DNA of 64,000 nucleotides from a virus (taxonomy: Duplodnaviria; Caudoviricetes). The position numbers were made by a program, and so were the translations under genes. The notes under the pieces are model-generated. The model did not search any database, was not told the DNA's origin, and saw only the letters and a list, made by a program, of their open reading frames with translations. Shown one piece after another: positions 16,264 through 60,165 of the stretch (position 1 is its first letter; each line of letters starts with the position of its first letter). The DNA is taken from the IMG/VR virus record IMGVR_UViG_3300017911_002159, positions 1 to 64,000 of that record, one strand, 5' to 3'.

Positions 16264-16286
16264 GGCGGGGTCACTGAGATCCCGCC
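16264..16286. terminator. GC-rich hairpin at a convergent gene junction
   Basis: GGCGGGGTC-ACTGA-GATCCCGCC; no good U-tract. Confidence 0.45.
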
Positions 16287-18475
16287 GCCCCTAACAGGGA
16301 GCCTGTATTGTGGCTCCCTAAATCATTTGCATTAGTGTGTATTCCCGGAACATAAAGTCCAGTTACGTTTGTTCCACCTTGCATTGGCTCTCCCTGTGCA
16401 CCTCTAGGAAGACTTTGGTTACCGCTGTAATCAGGATACATAGGCATTCTACCATTTCCAACAAAACCATAATCGTAGCTTGGAATTGCTGGAGCATTAA
16501 TGTACTCAAAGATGTCTGATATAGAATTATCAGAATCAAAAAAGTCTGTTACAGCAGAAGCAGCTAATAATCCCGCAGCACCACCAAAGTTTCCGGTCAA
16601 TCCGGTAGCTAGAGCTAAAGGATTGCCTCTTCCTATTGTGGAAATTTGTGTAAGTACATCACCCAAAACTGGAATTTCAGATAGTCCAGAAGACTTTAAC
16701 ATTTCATCAACAAAGTTAAACACAGGCTCACCAGCCACCTTAATCATACTTTGAAGTTCGTTAAATCCATCTTCACCTAGAGCTATCCTTGTAGCAGCAA
16801 AGGCTCCTGCACCAGCAGCAAATCCACCAAACATACCACCACCTAGCAATGAAGATAAACCAGCTACGGCTCCTGTAGTTCCTAATAAAGTGATAATTTC
16901 TTTATTATTGGTAAAGAAATCAATGATAGCTTTTAATGTTGGGTTAGATTCAATAAAATCATCAAGAACAAGCCCACCAGCAGATTCTCTTAATTTTTTT
17001 ACTTCTTCTGGATTCTCTGATCCAAGAACTAGTGTTCTTGTATCCGCCTTGCCCAAACCAATTTCACCAGCAATCTCACTTACAGCCATTTCTCCTAGTC
17101 TTTCTTGAACTTCTTCCGAAGTACCACGTAAAGGATCAAGCTGTGGTAAAGATTCCAACATTGTTTGTATTTGTGGATTTTGTAAAATTTCATCAATAGG
17201 TTTTGTTAAATTGCCAGCCAACTCTCCATACTCTGCATATTCTTTGTTAAACCTACCTAATATATTATTAATACCTTCAAATGTTTTATTTTGTTGATTA
17301 ACATTTTCTGACAAAATTCCCGGAGCATATGCTTTAATTAAATCAGAGCCTTCTGTTGGATTAAAAAGTATAGTTTCAAGTGGTGTCACTATACCTGATG
17401 TCTTTTGAAGAGTTTGATCAAGTTGTTCGAGTGCATCTATTTTTACGTTTGACTCTTCTGCTGCAGTGTAGATAGCTCTTAATCTGTCAAAGGCTCCCAT
17501 TTGGTCAAAATCTAAAAGTGATTCAAATTGTGGAGCTAAGACCTTTACAAGTTCTCTATTTTCTTGTGCAAGAGAAATAGATTCTTGAATTCTACCAGCC
17601 AGAGTGTCGGGGGCGGAGATTCTACTTATAGCAGATGTGATTGTTGGGATGCCTCCGCCTTGGAGACCCGGCCCTACTATTTCTTTTGCAAGTGTAGCAA
17701 CTTGTGGAATATCACCAAGGCTTTGACTAAGAACACCACTAACAGCAGACTCAACCCTTCCGGGAAAAAACCTAGTAGCTAGGTTTACCGCTGTACCTGC
17801 TACTGCTCCCGTCACTGATTCAACTTTTTCTTCTAGCACCGGATATCCGGTATCTCCACCATATCCAGTACTCATATTAGTGGAGTAAGATGTTGGTTCT
17901 GATAAAGGTGGTCTGGTGTCAGGAAATGCAGGAGGCTCAATTCCGAATTGATTTACCCAATTCATTTCTCGTTTTATTATACCGGCACCGTAATAATTTG
18001 CACCATCATCTTTTGATTTATTATAAAAAGTTTCGTTACCTGAACCGTAATTAATTACTTTCCTTACGTCACCTAATTCTTGAGCTTTTTTAGCAACTCC
18101 AGCAGAGCCGTTGTGCATGGCAAAATTACTATCATTAGAACCTGCAAAGACCTCATCTAATCTATCTTTAATTTTTTCTCTTAAAGCTTCATTGTTTTCA
18201 ATTCTTTTAATCTGTCTTTCTATGCTGTTTGTGTTTACAGGAGCATAGTAACCGCCACTATATTCTTTTTCTAAAGATCTTCCGTAAGCATCGGAACGGT
18301 TCATCAGAGTTTCTAAAACTGCTCTTTGAGCTTCTGCAGACGATTCACCAACTTCAGCTATGGTTAAAGCAAGTATTTTAATTAAGAAATCACTGTTTTC
18401 GTCACCAAAAAGCTCATCTTTAAATTTTGCTCTAAGTGAACTTAGTTTTGATTTATGTGATTCTGTTTGTGCCAT
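16271..18475 (-). CDS. Tape-measure/hub-like protein with an N-terminal SleB-like cell-wall hydrolase domain
   Basis: ALTIAEVG......AV.E...NR motif of Hydrolase_2; long helical body; Gly/Ala-rich TM-like segments; lies downstream of gp26/gp51. Confidence 0.6.
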   Translation of the reverse strand: MAQTESHKSKLSSLRAKFKDELFGDENSDFLIKILALTIAEVGESSAEAQRAVLETLMNRSDAYGRSLEKEYSGGYYAPVNTNSIERQIKRIENNEALREKIKDRLDEVFAGSNDSNFAMHNGSAGVAKKAQELGDVRKVINYGSGNETFYNKSKDDGANYYGAGIIKREMNWVNQFGIEPPAFPDTRPPLSEPTSYSTNMSTGYGGDTGYPVLEEKVESVTGAVAGTAVNLATRFFPGRVESAVSGVLSQSLGDIPQVATLAKEIVGPGLQGGGIPTITSAISRISAPDTLAGRIQESISLAQENRELVKVLAPQFESLLDFDQMGAFDRLRAIYTAAEESNVKIDALEQLDQTLQKTSGIVTPLETILFNPTEGSDLIKAYAPGILSENVNQQNKTFEGINNILGRFNKEYAEYGELAGNLTKPIDEILQNPQIQTMLESLPQLDPLRGTSEEVQERLGEMAVSEIAGEIGLGKADTRTLVLGSENPEEVKKLRESAGGLVLDDFIESNPTLKAIIDFFTNNKEIITLLGTTGAVAGLSSLLGGGMFGGFAAGAGAFAATRIALGEDGFNELQSMIKVAGEPVFNFVDEMLKSSGLSEIPVLGDVLTQISTIGRGNPLALATGLTGNFGGAAGLLAASAVTDFFDSDNSISDIFEYINAPAIPSYDYGFVGNGRMPMYPDYSGNQSLPRGAQGEPMQGGTNVTGLYVPGIHTNANDLGSHNTGSLLGAAGSQ

Positions 18476-50652: not shown

Positions 50653-52035
50653 ATGGCTGATTTTAAAGACACTTCATATTACAAAGAGGGTTCCATTAAA
50701 GGTGATGGTAAACTAGCTTCAGGCTACCGAGTTGTTGGCTCTTGGGCTGGCAACCAAAGGGGTGTTGTTTCTGGTGATATCTACGACTCTAAATTCGGTC
50801 CCGGAACTTCATCAGTTCCAGTTTTTGCTAAAACTAGCGCTGTACTTGCTTTAAATAAATTAAACATCAACAATGAAGAAAAATGGCAAATTACAATTGG
50901 TAAAGTGCCGTCAAAAAATTTCTCAGGCGGTAACTCTACATATGCACCAGAATTGATTAATGGTGATGGATTTATTTTTAGGTTCAGAATCAAAGATTAT
51001 AATTACACTGTTGGTGATAGTGATGAACTTTTACGTGGTTTGATCGAAGCAGGCTTTAACAAAATTAATATGGGTCTGAAAGGTACTGACAAAGTTGTAT
51101 ATGCAGCACGTGCAGGAACTGGTCTTTATCTTTCTGGCACTTCCGTTGAAGCTTCTAAAGAATCTCACCCGGTTTACAGACTGCATAAAATGGTAATCGG
51201 TGGTAAGTACATGCTTATTCATTCCGATGCTATGAAAAAGCTTCCAATCTCTCCAAAAAGGTATTTTACAAATTTCAAAACTTTAGTTCATAGAGCACCA
51301 TACTTGGCTGGTCCATTACAGCAAAAACTTTTCTACGTTGACAGACAAGATGAAATCTACGGCGATAATTCCGGTAGAGAACCTGTAAGAGGTATGGGTA
51401 TTAGTGTTGCTGCACTTTCTAGTCTTATTGATGATTACTTAGCTGATAGACTTGACGACGAAAGAATTGATAATTTTAGCCCACGTTTAGTTGAGATTTT
51501 GCAAAAGTATGGTGTGATGGGTTATCAGGAGCCTACGCCACAACCAACTATTCCAGATTCTGGAGATGATACTGGTGGCTTTGGAACCGGCACAATCGGT
51601 GACGATATTACACAGGCTGGTGACGAAATTCAAAAAAATATGAATGTTGTTCAAAGATTTATTAATCTGTTCAACAGTACAATTGGAATGGGTACTCAAC
51701 TCAAAAACATTTGGAATACTGTTACTGCTGCTCTGATTGCAAAGCAAGGTGCAGGATTTTTAGGTCTGACTACTTTAGGTGCAGGCTTATCAATTTCAGC
51801 ACTTGTTGCCTTAGGTATTGGTGGCCAATTTGCTTTTAGAAAATATCTGAAAAACAGAAAGAATCTTAGACAAGCAAGAGAAGCTTCTAGAGACAGGCAG
51901 CTTATGAGAGAACTTGGTATTGCAACTGAACCTCTCAAGAAAAATGCTTCCGATGAAGAACTTCAGGCTCTTATTCGTGAACTTGAAAGACAGGAGTCTA
52001 GAGATCCACAAACAAGAAAGTTGTACGACCTATGA
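50653..52035 (+). CDS. Unknown 460-aa protein in the prohead-core operon, with a C-terminal hydrophobic hairpin
   Basis: Occupies the gp68 slot; globular N-domain, Pro linker, then GAGFLGLTTLGAGLSISALVALGIGG and a basic helix. Confidence 0.8.
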   Translation: MADFKDTSYYKEGSIKGDGKLASGYRVVGSWAGNQRGVVSGDIYDSKFGPGTSSVPVFAKTSAVLALNKLNINNEEKWQITIGKVPSKNFSGGNSTYAPELINGDGFIFRFRIKDYNYTVGDSDELLRGLIEAGFNKINMGLKGTDKVVYAARAGTGLYLSGTSVEASKESHPVYRLHKMVIGGKYMLIHSDAMKKLPISPKRYFTNFKTLVHRAPYLAGPLQQKLFYVDRQDEIYGDNSGREPVRGMGISVAALSSLIDDYLADRLDDERIDNFSPRLVEILQKYGVMGYQEPTPQPTIPDSGDDTGGFGTGTIGDDITQAGDEIQKNMNVVQRFINLFNSTIGMGTQLKNIWNTVTAALIAKQGAGFLGLTTLGAGLSISALVALGIGGQFAFRKYLKNRKNLRQAREASRDRQLMRELGIATEPLKKNASDEELQALIRELERQESRDPQTRKLYDL

Positions 52036-52688
52036 AGTTAATCACCGAATTAAATGAACAAGTTTCTTTTCTTAAAGAAAACAAAACAGGCAAGCCAGAA
52101 TATTTTTTAGAAGGCATTTTTATTCAAGGTGAGAAAAAGAATAAAAATGGAAGGGTCTATCCTATTGAAATTCTTCAAAAAGAAGTTGCCAAATATAAAG
52201 ATGAACTCGTTTCTAAAAAGAGAGCATTTGGTGAGTTGGGTCACCCTGATGGTCCTACTATTAATTTGGATAGAGTTTCACACATGATTGTGGAAATCGA
52301 ACAGGACGGCAACAACTTTATTGGTTCTGCAAAAATTCTTGATACTCCTAACGGTAAGATTGTTAAGGCTCTTATTGATGAGGGTGCAACACTTGGTGTC
52401 TCAACAAGAGGCATGGGTTCTTTGAAATCACGTGGTGAGTTTCAAGAAGTTCAAGATGATTTTTCTTTAGCTACAGCAGCAGATATTGTGGCAGATCCTT
52501 CTGCTCCTGATGCTTTTGTTAATGGTATTATGGAAGGTGTTGAGTGGGTTTGGCATAATGGTGTTTTAAAGGCTTCTGCTATTGAGAACTACCGAGATAT
52601 CATTGAAGAAAAATCAAGTTCGAGAGAGCTTACACAAGAAGCTAAACTATCTCTTTTCGAAGATTTCCTCAAAAAGTTATCTAAATAA
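52032..52688 (+). CDS. gp21: Prohead protease gp21
   Basis: MKLITE, N.NGR.YP, GELGHP, INLDRVSH, GVSTRGMGSL, DIVADPSAPDAFV. Confidence 0.97.
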   Translation: MKLITELNEQVSFLKENKTGKPEYFLEGIFIQGEKKNKNGRVYPIEILQKEVAKYKDELVSKKRAFGELGHPDGPTINLDRVSHMIVEIEQDGNNFIGSAKILDTPNGKIVKALIDEGATLGVSTRGMGSLKSRGEFQEVQDDFSLATAADIVADPSAPDAFVNGIMEGVEWVWHNGVLKASAIENYRDIIEEKSSSRELTQEAKLSLFEDFLKKLSK

Positions 52689-52714: not shown

Positions 52715-53788
52715 ATGGCACGAAGAAAAAAAGTTGTTGAATCAACAAATATTCCTCCAGTAGAGGAACCAACACCGGATCTGTCCTCTTCTCGGGTTGT
52801 GGCTGTACAAACGCCATCTAAGAGACCGCAGGATCAGGATCAGGGTGAAGGCATGTCTAGAGCTGAAAAGAACTCTGCAGTTATTAATGCAGTTCTTACA
52901 GCAGATGATGCAAAAGTAAACCAGATCTTAGCTACAGTTGCTGAACCTGCGCCAGAAGCTACAGAGGCGAAGCCTGAAGATAAGAACGAAGAAATTCCAG
53001 ATGAGTCGGCTGCAGTAAACCAGTCCACCATCATGGCTAAAGAAGCTGTTGATACTATTTTTGCGGGTGAACAGCTTTCCGAAGAAATTATGCATAAGGC
53101 GGCTGCTATTTTTGAAGCTACCATCAAACAAAAGATGGAAGAAGTAGAAGACGAAATTATTGCAGAACTTTCTGAAGATTTTGATTATCAGTTCAATCAA
53201 GAAGTAGAAGCATTAACCGAGTCCGTTGACAATTTCCTTAACGATTCTGTTCAAGAATACATGATCGAAAATAAGCTTGTCCTTGATAACGGCATCAAGG
53301 GTGACCTCTACGAAAGCATGATTACCGACATTTCTAAAGTGATCAAGTCTTACAACATTGCAATTGATGACACACAAGTTGAAATGGTCCAAGAGGCTTA
53401 TGGTGAAGTAGATGAGCTTAAGGAAAAGTTAAACGAACAAATCAAAAAGAACATGAACCAGAGATCCCACATCAACGAGCTTGAGAAGGCTCTGGTTTTT
53501 GAAGCAATTTCTGTTGATCTCTCTCTTATGCAAAGAGAAAAACTTAAGAGACTGGCAGAAAATGTTGATGCTGAAAATGCAAATGAACTGAATAACAAGT
53601 TAGTAGCATTAAAAGAAACTTTTATTGGCAATGAGTTTGACACAGCATCTGTACTTAAAGAAGCAAGATCTTCTGATGCATTTTATATGGATGAACAAGT
53701 TGAAGTTGAGCAAAATGATAAATACATCGACGGAAACATTAAAAAATACGTTGATGCAGTTTCAAATCATGTTAAAAAAACAAAGTAA
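52715..53788 (+). CDS. gp22: Prohead scaffold gp22
   Basis: LSEE...KAA.IFEA, EN.L....GIK....E, acidic coiled coil; between gp21 and gp23. Confidence 0.88.
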   Translation: MARRKKVVESTNIPPVEEPTPDLSSSRVVAVQTPSKRPQDQDQGEGMSRAEKNSAVINAVLTADDAKVNQILATVAEPAPEATEAKPEDKNEEIPDESAAVNQSTIMAKEAVDTIFAGEQLSEEIMHKAAAIFEATIKQKMEEVEDEIIAELSEDFDYQFNQEVEALTESVDNFLNDSVQEYMIENKLVLDNGIKGDLYESMITDISKVIKSYNIAIDDTQVEMVQEAYGEVDELKEKLNEQIKKNMNQRSHINELEKALVFEAISVDLSLMQREKLKRLAENVDAENANELNNKLVALKETFIGNEFDTASVLKEARSSDAFYMDEQVEVEQNDKYIDGNIKKYVDAVSNHVKKTK

Positions 53789-53800
53789 TAGGAGTTACAA

Positions 53801-55150
53801 ATGAGCTTACAAGAACATGTTGTAAATAAGTGGTCTCCTCTGCTTGATCATCCAGATCTTCCAGAGATTGAAACCGGCCACAAGAGAAGTGTCACAGCAC
53901 AACTTCTCGAAAATACCGAGAGATCCCTGATGGAGCAAGCAGGTTTTGCACCACAGTCTCTCTTAGAAGCTGCCCCTGCCAACGCTATGGGTTCTTCTTC
54001 GTCTGTTGCTGGCGACGGTAACGTAGACATCTTCGATCCAGTACTTATTTCTCTGGTTCGTCGTTCCATGCCTAACCTCGTTGCTTACGACATTTGTGGC
54101 GTACAGCCAATGACTGGTCCTACAGGTCTGATCTTTGCTATGAGATCCAGATTTGATTCTCAGACTGGCGATGAGGCTCTGTACAACGAAGCAAACACTG
54201 GTTTCTCTTCGAACCCAATTGCTGCTCACGACAACGCTGTTGACGGTAACGCTGGCCAAAACCTTGGTGACCTTCCAACAGGTGAGTCGAACACTTACAA
54301 CTTCCAAGCTGGTATGTCTACTGCTGATGCTGAAGCACTCGGCGGTAACACCACCTACTCGATTCCAGAAATGGCATTCAGCATTGAGAAAGTGTCTGTG
54401 ACTGCTAAGTCCCGTGCACTGAAAGCTGAATACACAATGGAACTGGCACAAGACCTTAAGGCAATTCATGGTCTGGACGCTGAAACTGAGCTTGCAAATA
54501 TTCTGCAGGCTGAGATTCTGGCTGAAATCAACCGTGAAGTTGTCAGAACTATTAACCTGACCGCTGTTTCTGGTGCACAGAACAACGTTGCATCGTCCGG
54601 TACTTTCGACATGGACGTTGACTCCAACGGTCGTTGGATGGTTGAGAAGTTCAAGGGTCTGATGTTCCAGATCGAACGTGAAGCTAACAAGATTGCAAAA
54701 GACACCCGCCGTGGTAAGGGCAACATTCTGCTCTGTTCGTCGGACGTAGCTTCTGCTCTGCAAATGGCTGGTGTTCTGGACTACGCTCCTGCTCTGAACT
54801 CCAACAACCTTCAGGTTGACGACACAGGCCAGACTTTTGCTGGTGTCCTGAATGGTCGTATCAGAGTATACATCGATCCATACTTCACTGGCTCCGGTGC
54901 AAACCAGTACATGACCGTAGGCTACAAGGGTGCTAATGCCTTTGATGCTGGTCTGTTCTACTGCCCATACGTGCCACTGCAGATGGTAAGAGCAGTTGGT
55001 GAGAATAGCTTCCAGCCAAAGATCGGCTTCAAAACCCGTTACGGTATGGTTGCTAACCCATTTGCTGAAGGTGCTACCGCTGGTTCTGGTGCACTGACAC
55101 AAAACACCAACAAGTACTACAGAAGAGTAACTGTTGCTAACTTGATGTAA
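53801..55150 (+). CDS. gp23: Major capsid protein gp23
   Basis: DPVLISLVRR.MPNL.AYDICGVQPMTGPTGLIFAMR, SRALKAEY..ELAQDLKAIHGLDAE, FQPKIGFKTRYG. Confidence 0.99.
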   Translation: MSLQEHVVNKWSPLLDHPDLPEIETGHKRSVTAQLLENTERSLMEQAGFAPQSLLEAAPANAMGSSSSVAGDGNVDIFDPVLISLVRRSMPNLVAYDICGVQPMTGPTGLIFAMRSRFDSQTGDEALYNEANTGFSSNPIAAHDNAVDGNAGQNLGDLPTGESNTYNFQAGMSTADAEALGGNTTYSIPEMAFSIEKVSVTAKSRALKAEYTMELAQDLKAIHGLDAETELANILQAEILAEINREVVRTINLTAVSGAQNNVASSGTFDMDVDSNGRWMVEKFKGLMFQIEREANKIAKDTRRGKGNILLCSSDVASALQMAGVLDYAPALNSNNLQVDDTGQTFAGVLNGRIRVYIDPYFTGSGANQYMTVGYKGANAFDAGLFYCPYVPLQMVRAVGENSFQPKIGFKTRYGMVANPFAEGATAGSGALTQNTNKYYRRVTVANLM

Positions 55151-55176: not shown

Positions 55177-55203
55177 AAAAGGGGGCTTCGGCCCCCTTTT
55201 TTT
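55177..55203 (+). terminator. Intrinsic terminator with cUUCGg tetraloop after gp23
   Basis: AAAA-GGGGGC-TTCG-GCCCCC-TTTTTTT. Confidence 0.93.
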
Positions 55204-55204
55204 A

Positions 55205-55212
55205 TATAAATA
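55205..55212 (+). promoter_or_regulatory. T4-type late promoter TATAAATA
   Basis: Exact consensus right after the terminator, 24 nt before the ATG at 55237. Confidence 0.85.
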
Positions 55213-55236
55213 GTCATAGATAATGCTGGAGGTCTT

Positions 55237-56622
55237 ATGTCTTACTCGAAAAATTTTATTAGAGAATTTAGTATATCACTTCCCGGTGGCAGCAGCGGTT
55301 CAAAGGCCCCCGGTACTATTTTTGGATTTGGTCAAAATATTGACATAGCTGGTCCTGCAGCATTTGTCTCAAAAAAAGCAACACAAGCTGCAATTGATAC
55401 AGCTACCTCAAGAGAAAACTTACTTAAGTTAGGTGCTGCTGCCTTAGTTGCTGGGGGAGCTTTAGGTTTAAGTGCAGGTCTTGGTGGTAGACTTGCAAAC
55501 TTAGGAAGAAAGAAAGAAATTGAAGAAGATAGAGCATCTTCTCAGCAAGGTTACGAGGCACAAATAAATCAAGCTATTGCAGCGGCAGACCCAAGTGATT
55601 TGGATCCTGCACAAAATGCAGCAAGAATTGCAGGGCCAGAGGGTCAGAAAGCAGTAGACGATGCTCTTAGATATGCAAATCCTGATACAACGAAGGGTGA
55701 GCAAGGTTTAAATCCTGTATCTAGGGCTGCTATTTCACAAGCCACAGGAATTAATATAGGCAAATTACCTAGAGCAGGAACTTTAGGCGGTGGAGATTCG
55801 GGAAATCCTCCTGCAGGTGTTGCCGTTGCTACAAGGGCTGCTGCTAGAGCAGCCGCAGATGCTAGAGATGCATACAACGATCCCTCTACAGGCTATAAAA
55901 AAACAATTGATCAAACAATAGCTAATATTAGAGGAACAAGATTCAATCCAACAGGTGGTGGTGGAACTAATCCAAGCATAGATTCTGACAGTCCTACTGT
56001 TAGAACCGTAGGTAATGCTATTTTAAATTCACCTATTGGTAAAGAGGGTGTAAGACAAGCTAAAATTGCACAAATTGGCACTCGAACAGGGGCTAAATCT
56101 CCAGATACTTTCATGGCTACAAGACAAAATACTGGTGTCGATAGAGAAGTTTTAGACCCTTCATCATCTAATCTAAGAAATATAGCTTCTGCAGGTGCAA
56201 AAGTATTTGGGTCAAATGTTTCATTGCCTTCAGGTGATGAAGCTGCTTCAGCTATTCAATCGTTTAATCCAGCAGAATTGATGGGTCAAGGTGCAAGTGT
56301 ACTCTCTGGAGTTTCGAAATCAGCACAACCGTATATTAAGGCATATGGTGGTAATCCACTTAATTTAATTGGATTAGGAAGTAACTTTAGACCTTCTGTT
56401 GGTGATATAGCTGCTATGAGAGGCGAGTTAAGATCTAATTTAGCTCCAATTGCTAAATCTATTAACAGATCCATTGGTGATGCTGGCGGACAGTCAGGTC
56501 TTAACCCTGCTTTCGATTATATCAGAACTACTAAACCTGAAGATATTGCAAATGCAAGCCAACAATTCGGTGCAAATCCAACAAGATTTGCCAGAGCACA
56601 AAGAAATCTCGGAGCAAAATAA
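55237..56622 (+). CDS. Putative internal head protein A (Gly/Ala-rich, CTS-like leader)
   Basis: MSYSKNFIRE leader; hydrophobic LGAAALVAGGALGLSAGLGG followed by RLANLGRKKEIEEDR. Confidence 0.7.
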   Translation: MSYSKNFIREFSISLPGGSSGSKAPGTIFGFGQNIDIAGPAAFVSKKATQAAIDTATSRENLLKLGAAALVAGGALGLSAGLGGRLANLGRKKEIEEDRASSQQGYEAQINQAIAAADPSDLDPAQNAARIAGPEGQKAVDDALRYANPDTTKGEQGLNPVSRAAISQATGINIGKLPRAGTLGGGDSGNPPAGVAVATRAAARAAADARDAYNDPSTGYKKTIDQTIANIRGTRFNPTGGGGTNPSIDSDSPTVRTVGNAILNSPIGKEGVRQAKIAQIGTRTGAKSPDTFMATRQNTGVDREVLDPSSSNLRNIASAGAKVFGSNVSLPSGDEAASAIQSFNPAELMGQGASVLSGVSKSAQPYIKAYGGNPLNLIGLGSNFRPSVGDIAAMRGELRSNLAPIAKSINRSIGDAGGQSGLNPAFDYIRTTKPEDIANASQQFGANPTRFARAQRNLGAK

Positions 56623-56960
56623 TGAGTTATTCTAGAAGTTTAATTAGAGAAGTTACGGTTACAGCCACAAAAACCCAAGGCCCAACAATTGGACAAACTG
56701 GAACCACAGATGTTCCAGCTAGTCCTCTAGATGCTGATAAATTTAATGTAAGTGGTTTAGGTGCTGCTGGAGCAGATGCTCTAACAAAGACAGTAAGAAA
56801 CATCGGTTCCGATTTGTTTGGTACAGGTGGCATTTTTACAAAACCAAAAAATATTGCAATTGCTGCTGCTGTCCCGTTGTCAATTGGAGCATTGAGTTCG
56901 GTTGGTAGAAGAATTGGTAATATTGGTCGTAGAAGAGAAGAAGACAGAAGGTTCAGATAA
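56622..56960 (+). CDS. Putative internal head protein B (paralogue of the N-terminal part of A)
   Basis: MSYSRSLIRE leader; IAIAAAVPLSIGALSSVG followed by RRIGNIGRRREEDRR. Confidence 0.7.
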   Translation: MSYSRSLIREVTVTATKTQGPTIGQTGTTDVPASPLDADKFNVSGLGAAGADALTKTVRNIGSDLFGTGGIFTKPKNIAIAAAVPLSIGALSSVGRRIGNIGRRREEDRRFR

Positions 56961-57286
56961 TGTATAGCCGTAAACTTCTCAAAGAATTACAAGAAGCTGG
57001 TAAAGATGATCTTTACTACAGACAAGTAGATTTTGACCCCTATGCACCAAGATACACTGTTCCACAGTTAGCAACAACCGCAGGTGGTATAGCAGGAACA
57101 ACCCTTGGTTCTCAGCTAGGTATGAGATTGGGCCAGTCTACAGGTATTCCCGGTGCTGGACTTGCAGGGTTAGGTATTGGTGGTGCTCTTGGCGGTGCCT
57201 TAGGTTCTATTGGTGCTTACCAACTAGCAAAGGCTGCAAGACCTAAAAAGAAGAAGCAAAAGAAACTGATACAGTATTATAGATAA
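56960..57286 (+). CDS. Putative internal head protein C (glycine zipper)
   Basis: MYSRKLLKELQE leader; GxxxG zipper GLAGLGIGGALGGALGSIG; KKKKQKK tail. Confidence 0.7.
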   Translation: MYSRKLLKELQEAGKDDLYYRQVDFDPYAPRYTVPQLATTAGGIAGTTLGSQLGMRLGQSTGIPGAGLAGLGIGGALGGALGSIGAYQLAKAARPKKKKQKKLIQYYR

Positions 57287-57822
57287 TGTCAATTTCAGAA
57301 TCACAACCAGCATCTTTAAACTATATTCAACCGAATAATTTTACTTTTCGGATTAAAAGACTTCCTGACTTAAATTTCACAATTCAGTCCTGTAATGTTC
57401 CCGGCATTTCTGTTGGTAGAGTTGATCAGCCTAACCCTGTTCAGGGTGCACCTTTACAGGGCGACAGAATGTTTTTTGCAGATCTTTCGGTTGCTTTTCT
57501 TGTAGATGAAAACTTAAAAAACTACCGTGAGATTTTTACTTGGATGAGCAGAATCACAAACCAAAGTTGGCATCCCGGTTCTTATCATTACAAAACTTTA
57601 AGAGATGCACAGCCGGGTGATGATGTTGGTTTATTCTCTGATATCACAATGAATATCTTGACTTCTGCAAAAAATCCTAATATAAGATTAAAGTTTACTG
57701 ATGCTTTTCCTATTCAGTTGTCTGATTTAATCTTTGACTCTCAATCAGATCCTTCTGCATTTGCAAAAGCACAAGTAGTATTTACTTATAAGGATTATGA
57801 TTTTGAAGTCGTTGGTGGTTAA
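57286..57822 (+). CDS. gp3: Tail tube terminator gp3
   Basis: NY..P.NF.F.I...P...F..Q..N.PGI, F.VDE.L.NY.EI..W, F.DAFP..LS.L.FD. Confidence 0.9.
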   Translation: MSISESQPASLNYIQPNNFTFRIKRLPDLNFTIQSCNVPGISVGRVDQPNPVQGAPLQGDRMFFADLSVAFLVDENLKNYREIFTWMSRITNQSWHPGSYHYKTLRDAQPGDDVGLFSDITMNILTSAKNPNIRLKFTDAFPIQLSDLIFDSQSDPSAFAKAQVVFTYKDYDFEVVGG

Positions 57823-58256: not shown

Positions 58257-59677
58257 TTAATATTGAAAAGATAAACGATGTATATATTAGAATAGATTGT
58301 GAAGAAGACGTTGCTTACGAGCTAAGTGACAAGTTTACCTTTGATGTTCCCGGTGCAAAATTTTCTCCAGCTTACAAGAAAAAGCTTTGGGACGGTAAAA
58401 TACGTTTATTCAACATAAGAAAAAGAACTATTTACGCTGGATTAGTAGAAACAGTAAAAAGTTTTTTTGACGAGAAAGAATATGAATATAACGTAGGTTT
58501 TGATTACGATTCTTCAAAAATTGATTTTGAATCTCTTATCAAAGAAATAAATCTACCAGATAATATTCAACCCAGAGACTACCAAAGAAAAGCTGTAGAA
58601 CATGCAGTGTCAAAGTCCAGAGGACTTTTGCTGTCTCCGACAGCATCTGGTAAGTCACTTATCATCTATATTCTTACTAGATTTTATGAGAGTAAAACTC
58701 TTATAATTGTTCCTACTACTTCTCTCGTTTATCAGATGAGAGATGATTTTGTTTCTTATGGATATGACATAGATAAGATTCACTGTATCATGGCAGGACA
58801 AGATAAGGTTACTGATAAGCCTATCGTTATATCAACTTGGCAATCTATCCATAAGTCTAATAAAGATTTCTATGATCCTTACAAAGTCATTATAGGCGAT
58901 GAAGCTCACTTGTTCAAGGCAAAATCTTTAACAACGATCATGGAAAAAACTGTTTCGGTCCCTTACAAGTTTGGGTTTACCGGAACACTGGATGGATCTC
59001 AGACCAACAAGCTTGTTTTAGAAGGACTTTTTGGGTCTGTCTTTAGGGTGACAACGACAAAGGAGTTGATGGATTCAAACTACCTAGCCAATGTTGGTGT
59101 CAAGTGTATAACACTCAACCACCCCAAAGAAGCTAGAAACCTTGTCAAAGGTTCTACGTATCAACAAGAGATCGATTATCTTTGCATCAACCCACAAAGA
59201 AATAATTTTATAAAAAATCTTGCATTATCTTGTAATGGTAATACACTGGTTCTGTTTCAGATGGTCGAGAAGCAAGGGAAGCTGCTTTACGATCTTATTA
59301 AAGAAAATGGTAGGGATGTTTTTTATGTTGATGGCAACACAAAGGCTGAAGACCGTGAGAGTGTTAGGAAGTATGCAGAGGAGAATCAAAATGTGATTAT
59401 TATCGCCTCCTATGGCGTTTTTAGTACGGGAGTAAACATCAAAAATTTGCATAACGTGATTTTTGCCTCTCCCTCAAAATCAAGAATCAGAAACCTACAA
59501 TCTATCGGTAGGGGTCTGAGACGGTCTTCGGAAAAGGATAAGGCGGTTGTCTACGATATTTCAGATGATTTAAGACAGAGAAACAAAGACAACTACACAC
59601 TTCAACATTTCAAAGAGAGATTGAGAATTTATTCTGAAGAAAAATTTAAATTTAAAGTGTATGAGTATAAATTATGA
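58253..59677 (+). CDS. uvsW: SF2 DNA helicase UvsW
   Basis: WDGKIRLF, PTASGKS, DEAH, GFTGT, QSIGRGLR. Confidence 0.97.
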   Translation: MINIEKINDVYIRIDCEEDVAYELSDKFTFDVPGAKFSPAYKKKLWDGKIRLFNIRKRTIYAGLVETVKSFFDEKEYEYNVGFDYDSSKIDFESLIKEINLPDNIQPRDYQRKAVEHAVSKSRGLLLSPTASGKSLIIYILTRFYESKTLIIVPTTSLVYQMRDDFVSYGYDIDKIHCIMAGQDKVTDKPIVISTWQSIHKSNKDFYDPYKVIIGDEAHLFKAKSLTTIMEKTVSVPYKFGFTGTLDGSQTNKLVLEGLFGSVFRVTTTKELMDSNYLANVGVKCITLNHPKEARNLVKGSTYQQEIDYLCINPQRNNFIKNLALSCNGNTLVLFQMVEKQGKLLYDLIKENGRDVFYVDGNTKAEDRESVRKYAEENQNVIIIASYGVFSTGVNIKNLHNVIFASPSKSRIRNLQSIGRGLRRSSEKDKAVVYDISDDLRQRNKDNYTLQHFKERLRIYSEEKFKFKVYEYKL

Positions 59678-60165
59678 CAAAAAAGAAAAAGTCGGTAAAT
59701 TATATCGACAACAAAACATTTTACAGAAGATTGGTCGAATATCAGGAAGAGTGTAGAAACGCAGAGGACATGCCTATAATTCCTAATGACATTGCTATTT
59801 GTATTAGTGACATTGCAAATCGTCTTGCCACCAAACCAAATTTTTCTGGATACATTTTTAAAGAGGATATGATTGGTGACGGCATTGAAAATGCATTGGA
59901 TGCTGTGTTAAAGTTCAATCCTGAAAAATCTGAAAATCCATTTGCTTATTTCACACAAATAATCTGGTATGCTTTTCTCAGAAAAATCGAGAAGGAAAAA
60001 AAGCTTCTTCTAATCAAGAAAAAATACTATGATCATAAGTACATCAATCAGGAGCTTGTGGACTACTCACTCTCGGACAAGACCAAGATTCCTTACTCAG
60101 ACACTTATGTTCAAAACGACTACATGGATGATCTAGAAAAAAGGCACGACGAAAAGAATGGCTAA
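59674..60165 (+). CDS. gp55: Late sigma factor gp55
   Basis: NY.DNK.F, IA..L..KPNF.GY.F.EDMI.DGIEN, FNPEKS.NPFAYFTQI.WYAFLR.I.KEKK. Confidence 0.96.
   Translation: MTKKKKSVNYIDNKTFYRRLVEYQEECRNAEDMPIIPNDIAICISDIANRLATKPNFSGYIFKEDMIGDGIENALDAVLKFNPEKSENPFAYFTQIIWYAFLRKIEKEKKLLLIKKKYYDHKYINQELVDYSLSDKTKIPYSDTYVQNDYMDDLEKRHDEKNG

Follow-up and report, generated by a model that had tools for sequence, protein, structure and literature searches.

Genes and signals between gp23 and gp3

The interval between gp23, encoding the major capsid protein (MCP), and a gp3-like gene was analysed in a window of 64,000 nucleotides, the first 64 kb of an IMG/VR virus record of 119,120 bp that is about 66% complete and comes from an uncultured marine T4-like myovirus. 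This slot held three conserved, translationally coupled open reading frames (ORFs), A, B and C (Table 1). Judging from their sequences and those of their relatives, they probably encode capsid-targeted internal head proteins, directed to the prohead core and processed by the gp21-like protease. The slot followed a head block in the order gp20 (portal), a gp67/68-like gene, a 460-aa ORF, gp21, gp22 and gp23. The original prediction, made from the DNA alone, had reported three ORFs with these N-termini between gp23 and gp3; their coordinates and leaders were confirmed, as was its description of each product as having a hydrophobic Gly/Ala stretch with a basic patch after it. Pairwise ratios of nonsynonymous to synonymous substitution rates (dN/dS) were 0.24 for the A body, 0.23 for B and 0.17-0.26 for C (0.17-0.27 overall), with gp23 at 0.16, indicating that A, B and C are real coding genes.

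An intrinsic terminator and a T4-type late promoter motif, TATAAATA, stood between gp23 and A. The motif had been singled out in the original prediction. Its occurrence in the window was at chance level (5 observed and 4.8 expected), so that the number alone carries no meaning, but the hairpin, the motif and GGAG kept their positions in five related loci. All junctions from A through C/gp3 were overlapping ATAATG sequences, and no terminator was found at the site upstream of gp3. A, B and C therefore open a late transcription unit that runs into gp3, and do not form the separate late operon that had been proposed. The earlier assignment of MSLQE as the gp23 maturation site also appears unlikely, as SLLE56/AAPA (cleavage at the slash) fits better and the Pfam Gp23 domain begins at residue 76.

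Table 1. Features of the slot, the head-gene block and the leader family. Positions are those of the window unless marked as record positions.
Feature	Position	Strand	Description
gp23 intrinsic terminator	55177-55204	+	10-bp G+C-rich hairpin (55177-55200), then T-run
T4-type late promoter motif	55205-55212	+	TATAAATA; GGAGG downstream at 55228-55232
A	55237-56622	+	461 aa; N-terminus MSYSKNFIRE
Leader of A	55237-55266	+	MSYSKNFIRE; putative capsid-targeting sequence ending I-R-E
Extra B-type module inside A	55267-55527	+	residues 11-97; variable part, anchor LLKLGAAALVAGGALGLSA (55420-55476), GRLANLGRKK, junction site I-E-E
A body	55528-56622	+	residues 98-461, starting DRASS; basic, Gly/Ala/Asn/Pro-rich; optional, clade-restricted
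B	56622-56960	+	112 aa; leader MSYSRSLIRE, variable part, hydrophobic anchor (56850-56906), GRRIGNIGRRREEDRRFR; fused to C in many relatives
C	56960-57286	+	108 aa; N-terminus MYSRKLLKELQE; own leader MYSRKLLKE(LQE); conserved DLYYxQVDxDPYAPxYT core, glycine zipper (57083-57214), basic tail RPKKKKQKKLIQYYR (57239-57283)
gp21-like prohead core serine protease	52032-52688	+	Pfam Peptidase_S77 1.1e-33; phrog_207 5.9e-81; presumed processing enzyme
gp22-like scaffold	52715-53788	+	Pfam T4_CASP 3e-43
gp23 major capsid protein	53801-55150	+	Pfam Gp23 2.3e-149
gp3-like protein, gp19/tail-tube fold	57286-57822	+	phrog_45 1.1e-32
gp55-like late sigma factor	59674-60165		synteny with Mosig and Melnitz; weak Sigma70_r2 match in the counterpart of related locus L004
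460-aa ORF	50653-52035		between the gp67/68-like gene and gp21
734-aa ORF	16271-18475	-	three Gly/Ala hydrophobic segments
Leader ORF	record 83834-84556	-	MSYSKDVLRE; 240 aa
Leader ORF	record 85311-85790	-	MSYSRMAIQE
Leader ORF	record 83370-83834	-	MKTYQQLKEE; 154 aa
Leader ORF	record 107357-108343	+	MISYSQLTEE; 328 aa
Leader ORF	record 108340-108720	+	MKTYNNMLNE; 126 aa
Probable leader ORF	record 85792-86214	-	MCQACNEAIKE
Probable leader ORF	record 100499-102883	+	MKNFSSLKEE
Second leader cluster	record 83026-87817 (L008 3027-7818)	-	tightly packed genes, outside the window
115-aa ORF of second cluster	record 83026-83373		N-terminus of the MSKKLLLGKE / MSKVKKLLLG type
363-aa protein	record 81175-82266 (L008 1176-2267)		weak endolysin match (phrog_894, E 0.0016)
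Apparent sugar-modification cluster with two leader ORFs	record 107357-108720 (L009 2358-3721)		MISYSQLTEE and MKTYNNMLNE; distant from the head genes

Leader family and modular slot

The N-terminal pattern was sought in all ORFs of the 119-kb record, and the leader M(S)YS[KR]xx[LI]xE or a variant of it was found on at least nine otherwise unrelated ORFs, with [LI]xE endings (IRE, IRE, LKE, LRE, IQE, LKE, LNE, LTE) at leader residues 7-10. In the leader of A, M1, S2, Y3, S4, K5, I8 and E10 were invariant across 7 orthologues. The T4 internal proteins (IPs) IPII and IPIII begin with MKTYQEFIAE (read from NC_000866); MKTYQQLKEE and MKTYNNMLNE have MKTY in common with this capsid-targeting sequence (CTS), the former matching through MKTYQ. 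Ten residues of the T4 CTS suffice for packaging, positions 4 and 7 being the main determinants of targeting and positions 8 and 10 those of processing (PMC9026906). In the leaders of the record, Tyr occupied position 3 or 4, position 7 was hydrophobic, position 8 was I/L and Glu stood at 9 or 10. Paralogous leaders used different codons (TCT and AGT for Ser, AAA and AGA for Lys/Arg), which points to selection on the peptide and rules out a nucleotide-level element. A bacteriocin double-glycine leader was also ruled out, as there was neither a GG nor a C39 transporter.

All members of the family were basic, with isoelectric points of 9.3-10.9 (9.7-10.9 for A, B and C). The leader motif was the sole [LI]xE in four of them (B and the 159-, 140- and 126-aa ORFs), and A and C had no such site outside a leader or junction, whereas sites were about two-fold enriched in gp22 (12 compared to 6.2 expected) and gp21 (9 compared to 3.8 expected). 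Enrichment in gp22 and gp21 but not in the cargo fits the T4 picture, in which the scaffold is shredded and the cargo merely trimmed.

The slot was compared across 22 related loci, in which each separately translated slot ORF started with M(S)YS[KRN]xx[LI]x[ED] and every fusion junction retained an [LIV]xE site. Four arrangements were found in the relatives: fused B-C, B and C, an A orthologue (A') with fused B-C, and A' with B and C (L025). A B-type module fused to A, followed by B and C, occurred in the window alone. C was the conserved module, while A was optional and missing from most related loci with a near-identical gp23. B-type modules had the Gly/Ala anchor and GRRIGNIG in common and diverged strongly between leader and anchor.

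The six A orthologues (81-88% identity, 379-383 aa) kept the leader and all lacked the extra B-type module (residues 13-92 of the A of the window); where the window holds this module, they had a second [IV]xE (IEE, ISE, IYE, VYE or IKE) immediately before DRASS. The extra stretch of about 80 residues was homologous to the N-terminal (B-slot) module of two related proteins, P0016 (E 5e-7) and P0039 (E 2e-12), in both of which that module was joined to a C module. The motif shared by A and B, from which their paralogy had been proposed, is real, and it is the first 90 residues of A that are homologous to the B-slot module. With the extra module of A counted, the supposed trio is really four modules of a variable, shuffled locus, and these modules are part of a larger leader family. 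In addition, synonymous divergence (dS) of the A body (55528-56619) from its L004 counterpart was 0.25, far under the 0.64 of the adjacent gp23, which suggests that lineages exchanged the A module recently.

In L004 and L006, B and C formed a single protein of 207-208 aa. The fused and split states differed by one 38-nt indel holding extra basic codons, a stop, an overlapping ATG and MYS[RK]xL. The same 38-nt state was present in diverged loci, ruling out a sequencing frameshift or an assembly error. L.E was invariant 10-13 residues ahead of DLYY in all 17 of the 17 sequences with a C module. A fused module thus kept the cleavage half of the tag only, and a singly translated module had the whole tag. 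Such a distribution, with whole tags on free N-termini and the cleavage half at junctions, is predicted by a targeting-plus-cleavage signal and is otherwise hard to explain; with [LIV]xE at each junction, fusing or splitting modules would leave the predicted mature products unchanged. Overall, the leader ORFs of the record, the MKTY variants, the 22 loci and the junction sites give substantial comparative support to the capsid-targeting and gp21-cleavage part of the original prediction.

Further members of the family lay in a second cluster of the record, which encoded four leader-bearing basic proteins with a Gly zipper or a transmembrane (TM) segment, a KTSC-domain protein (PF13619, 1.3e-18) and a DUF3008 protein (PF11450, 2.4e-9). 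The 154-aa MKTYQQLKEE protein had a single near-identical homologue among 5.8 billion clusters, and a scan of viral contigs gave no match for the 240-aa MSYSKDVLRE protein. The 328-aa MISYSQLTEE protein of the apparent sugar-modification cluster had a coiled coil followed by C-terminal hydrophobic helices.

The 460-aa ORF of the head block had no CTS-like leader and possessed the strongest TM-like segment of that block (FLGLTTLGAGLSISALVAL, ΔGapp 0.7), a basic helix and a C-terminal tail ending RKLYDL. Its orthologues in L004 (512 aa), L012 (313 aa) and L015 (402 aa) kept the tail and varied at the N-terminus. The protein might be a membrane-bound prohead-initiation factor or a C-terminally targeted cargo. 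The 363-aa protein with the weak endolysin match had a C-terminal TM helix and a basic/coiled tail, an architecture like that of the tail of the 460-aa ORF. Another N-terminus, MSKKLLLGKE / MSKVKKLLLG, recurred on the 115-aa ORF of the second cluster and, in related phages, on the orthologues of the 460-aa ORF (L012 359-1300; L004 2258-3796), perhaps reflecting recombination or another N-terminal tag in repeated use.

Cargo properties and competing explanations

The hydrophobic segments of A, B and C had Kyte-Doolittle values of 1.66, 1.59 and 1.44 and summed Hessa apparent insertion free energies (ΔGapp) of +3.6, +5.3 and +3.8 kcal/mol, respectively, and are marginally hydrophobic compared to the clear TM helices of the same genome (ΔGapp -1.5 to +0.7). 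Gly/Ala-type segments were present in 4 of 9 leader proteins and in 4 of 153 other ORFs (Fisher P = 3e-4, under a strict definition set post hoc). The description of C as a GxxxG zipper held, with 9 GxxxG motifs compared to 2.8 in whole-protein shuffles and 4.6 in shuffles within the Gly-rich part (P about 0.009). Neighbours from glycine-zipper families in the ESM Atlas had TM-scores of 0.28-0.47, under the same-fold level. Concerning homology, Pfam and PHROGs gave nothing for A and B, and C weakly matched phrog_22557, whose function is not known. A profile of A searched against 1.84 billion representatives recovered its own 50% cluster alone, and tblastn of A and fused B-C against 50,697 phage records gave no match. 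Gly/Ala segments of the same marginal type, three in number (e.g. IITLLGTTGAVAGLSSLLG), were also present in the 734-aa ORF, presumably a tape measure or hub protein from its position.

Under the capsid-targeting explanation, the N-terminal decapeptide M(S)YS[KR]xx[LI]xE would work like the T4 CTS, bringing each new protein into the gp22/gp21 scaffold core, where the gp21-like protease would cut after [LI]xE. The basic mature pieces would remain in the head with the DNA and exit through the tail at infection. T4 IPI-III and Alt leave the head through the tail at infection, and ejection of A, B and C with the DNA would follow from this precedent, provided that they are packaged and survive maturation. 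The slot as a whole would form a small polyprotein system, made of an optional A body, B-type modules and a conserved glycine-zipper module C. Packaging, cleavage and injection of these products are all predictions.

The original prediction went further and saw the injected products as membrane-active effectors, a reading that is only weakly indicated. Membrane insertion is plausible from composition and periodicity only. Should the proteins be packaged, one speculative possibility is that their glycine-zipper segments insert in the host inner membrane after ejection and act as a channel, a depolarising agent or an anchor. A fuller scenario is more doubtful: the CTS would have been kept since an ancestor shared with T4, shuffled and protease-released glycine-zipper peptides would be injected ahead of or with the DNA and oligomerise in the inner membrane as a DNA-entry channel or depolariser, and the hypervariable B part would tune them to the host. 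If so, they would supply a candidate for the molecule behind the phage-induced inner-membrane channel in T4-type infection.

Several observations weigh against the explanation as internal head proteins or against its membrane step. The mature parts showed no homology to known internal proteins in the searches above, and the closest isolate, with only 70.7% MCP identity, is not a member of this clade. The cleavage rule applied, [LI]xE, is that of T4 gp21 and may not be the specificity of this gp21. In the 240-aa and 328-aa family members, strongly hydrophobic helices (ΔGapp 1.4-1.8) could divert the proteins to the membrane ahead of packaging. Against the membrane step in particular stand the marginal hydrophobicity of A, B and C and the lack of any hmmscan match at E<=0.1 to the Pfam glycine-zipper families (PF13441, PF13488, PF05433) and of a confident AlphaFold2 fold (predicted local distance difference test, pLDDT, of 37 for A and 43.5 for fused B-C). 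A protein with such marginal segments could remain soluble in cytoplasm and head.

Some of these properties would also suit transient prohead-core (scaffold-accessory) parts like T4 gp67/gp68, brought into the core by the leader, in which Gly/Ala segments and basic patches would serve core packing or DNA condensation, with no role after ejection. The genes lie within the head block adjoining gp21, gp22 and gp23, their segments fall short of the hydrophobicity of classical TM helices, and the lack of an AlphaFold2 fold suits flexible packing proteins. Lysines of T4 internal proteins touch DNA phosphates (PMC3012670), and the basic tails might likewise neutralise DNA. Unlike gp22 and gp21, A, B and C show no enrichment in [LI]xE, so that polypeptides of about 100 and 364 aa would persist after maturation; at that size they could exit a sealed capsid only via the tail. 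As a hypervariable module is moreover unexpected in a structural core component, and A is optional, this alternative was judged unlikely. Exterior decoration or cement proteins like Hoc and Soc are the least credible of the alternatives, and very improbable. The genes do adjoin gp23, and the long, conserved and apparently extended or disordered A body resembles some cement proteins, but most related loci with a near-identical gp23 have no A, the leader recurs on numerous non-capsid ORFs, decoration proteins are not characterised by hydrophobic anchors or poly-Lys tails, and no Pfam or PHROG decoration match was obtained.

The products could alternatively be late membrane proteins that are not packaged, such as a holin/antiholin, lysis regulators or superinfection exclusion proteins, with the N-terminus serving initiation, stability or membrane targeting. 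Holins are classically small, with a hydrophobic segment and a strongly basic C-terminus, as here (KKKKQKK), and a late promoter is present. A Stenotrophomonas phage DLP_6 protein at a comparable gp20-gp21 position is annotated as a holin, and the endolysin-like gene of the record (phrog_894, a weak match) adjoins the second leader cluster. This explanation is nevertheless rather improbable. ΔGapp values of +3.6 to +5.3 argue against efficient translocon insertion, so that the bona fide TM helix of a holin is lacking, and no endolysin gene adjoins within the gp23-gp3 slot. More than nine paralogous leaders are too many for lysis genes, and codon divergence excludes an initiation element at the nucleotide level. 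The leader also ends in a protease motif and resembles the T4 CTS, and fusion and fission with retention of L.E would stay unexplained.

If A, B and C are indeed capsid-targeted, the T4 targeting mechanism would be conserved far outside the T-even phages, with MKTYQ-type leaders in a phage whose MCP is nearest to those of marine cyanophage-, Pelagibacter- and Methylophilales-type myoviruses, and the head cargo of uncultured phages would be predictable from sequence alone. The fused and split forms would then be a natural experiment separating the targeting half of the leader (free N-termini) from its cleavage half (every junction). Such cargo, unlike the soluble anti-restriction proteins of T4, would suggest a possible membrane action of injected proteins in phages with contractile tails.

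Comparison with other phages and known systems

The closest isolates by MCP identity were Stenotrophomonas phage DLP_6 (70.7%) and Methylophilales phage Melnitz (65.5%), followed by cyanophages. DLP_6 has an annotated exonuclease gene between gp23 and the gp3-like gene, and in Pelagibacter phage Mosig and in Melnitz gp23 is followed directly by gp3; going by these gene orders, the filling of the slot with A, B and C is specific to this clade. Melnitz (MZ577097.1; L018 12203-19789) possessed, at 12.2-19.8 kb, a block of hypothetical, mostly basic proteins with CTS-like N-termini ending in [LI]xE (MKKFSEIIE, MKKFSELTSELIE, MQGFKTFLSE, MLTLINFSKYITE), none of which had a hydrophobic segment. They are candidates for soluble proteins inside the head of this cultured marine T4-like phage, so that CTS-like tags may be common in marine T4-like phages, usually with soluble cargo.

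Podovirus ejection proteins (T7 gp14/15/16; P22 gp7/16/20) offer a functional analogy for membrane-inserting cargo; they are described as internal virion proteins that are expelled before or with the DNA and build a trans-envelope conduit (PMC8402733, PMC8954989). They differ in belonging to short-tailed phages, in being far larger and in having no T4-type CTS and no homology to A, B and C. For crossing the envelope, moreover, phages with contractile tails are already equipped with a tube and a tape measure. The glycine-zipper families Gly-zipper_YMGG (PF13441), Gly-zipper_Omp (PF13488) and Rick_17kDa_Anti (PF05433) resemble module C in its significant GxxxG periodicity, but they are bacterial envelope lipoproteins with signal peptides.

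A conceptual precedent for protease-matured head cargo directed to the membrane is gp47 of the Salmonella giant phage SPN3US, a head protein cut after x-E by a gp21-related prohead protease, whose propeptide was inferred to target the prohead and whose mature part, with a predicted TM helix, was inferred to leave the head by ejection and contact the host membrane; the position of its gene is highly diverged among relatives (PMC5694885). The inner-body/ejection proteins of phiKZ-like phages belong to the same comparison. The original claim of a system undescribed as a concept is therefore too strong. Unlike the system of A, B and C, SPN3US has propeptides of 79-111 residues with an A-x-E motif, and gp47 is one large protein of another phage group that shows no sequence relationship to A, B and C.

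The closest parallel is with T4 IPI, IPII, IPIII and Alt, which likewise carry a 10-residue N-terminal tag ending in [LI]xE on otherwise unrelated basic proteins of one phage. Both systems also combine predicted or known late expression with encoded gp21 and gp22 homologues, and both have variable, lineage-specific cargo, as described for T-even IP loci (PMC9026906). The mature parts have no sequence similarity, and packaging and cleavage of A, B and C are predicted. Mature T4-type internal proteins are small, basic and soluble; A, B and C are basic and contain Gly/Ala hydrophobic segments, and mature A has about 364 aa. The T4 cargo is soluble and globular, whereas that of the slot has Gly/Ala anchors or glycine zippers and poly-basic tails, and its modules, located between gp23 and gp3, are fused around internal cleavage motifs in a polyprotein-like manner. 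Thus, T4-type CTS targeting is known, and what would be new is the class of cargo, the polyprotein-like modular locus and its site beside gp23.

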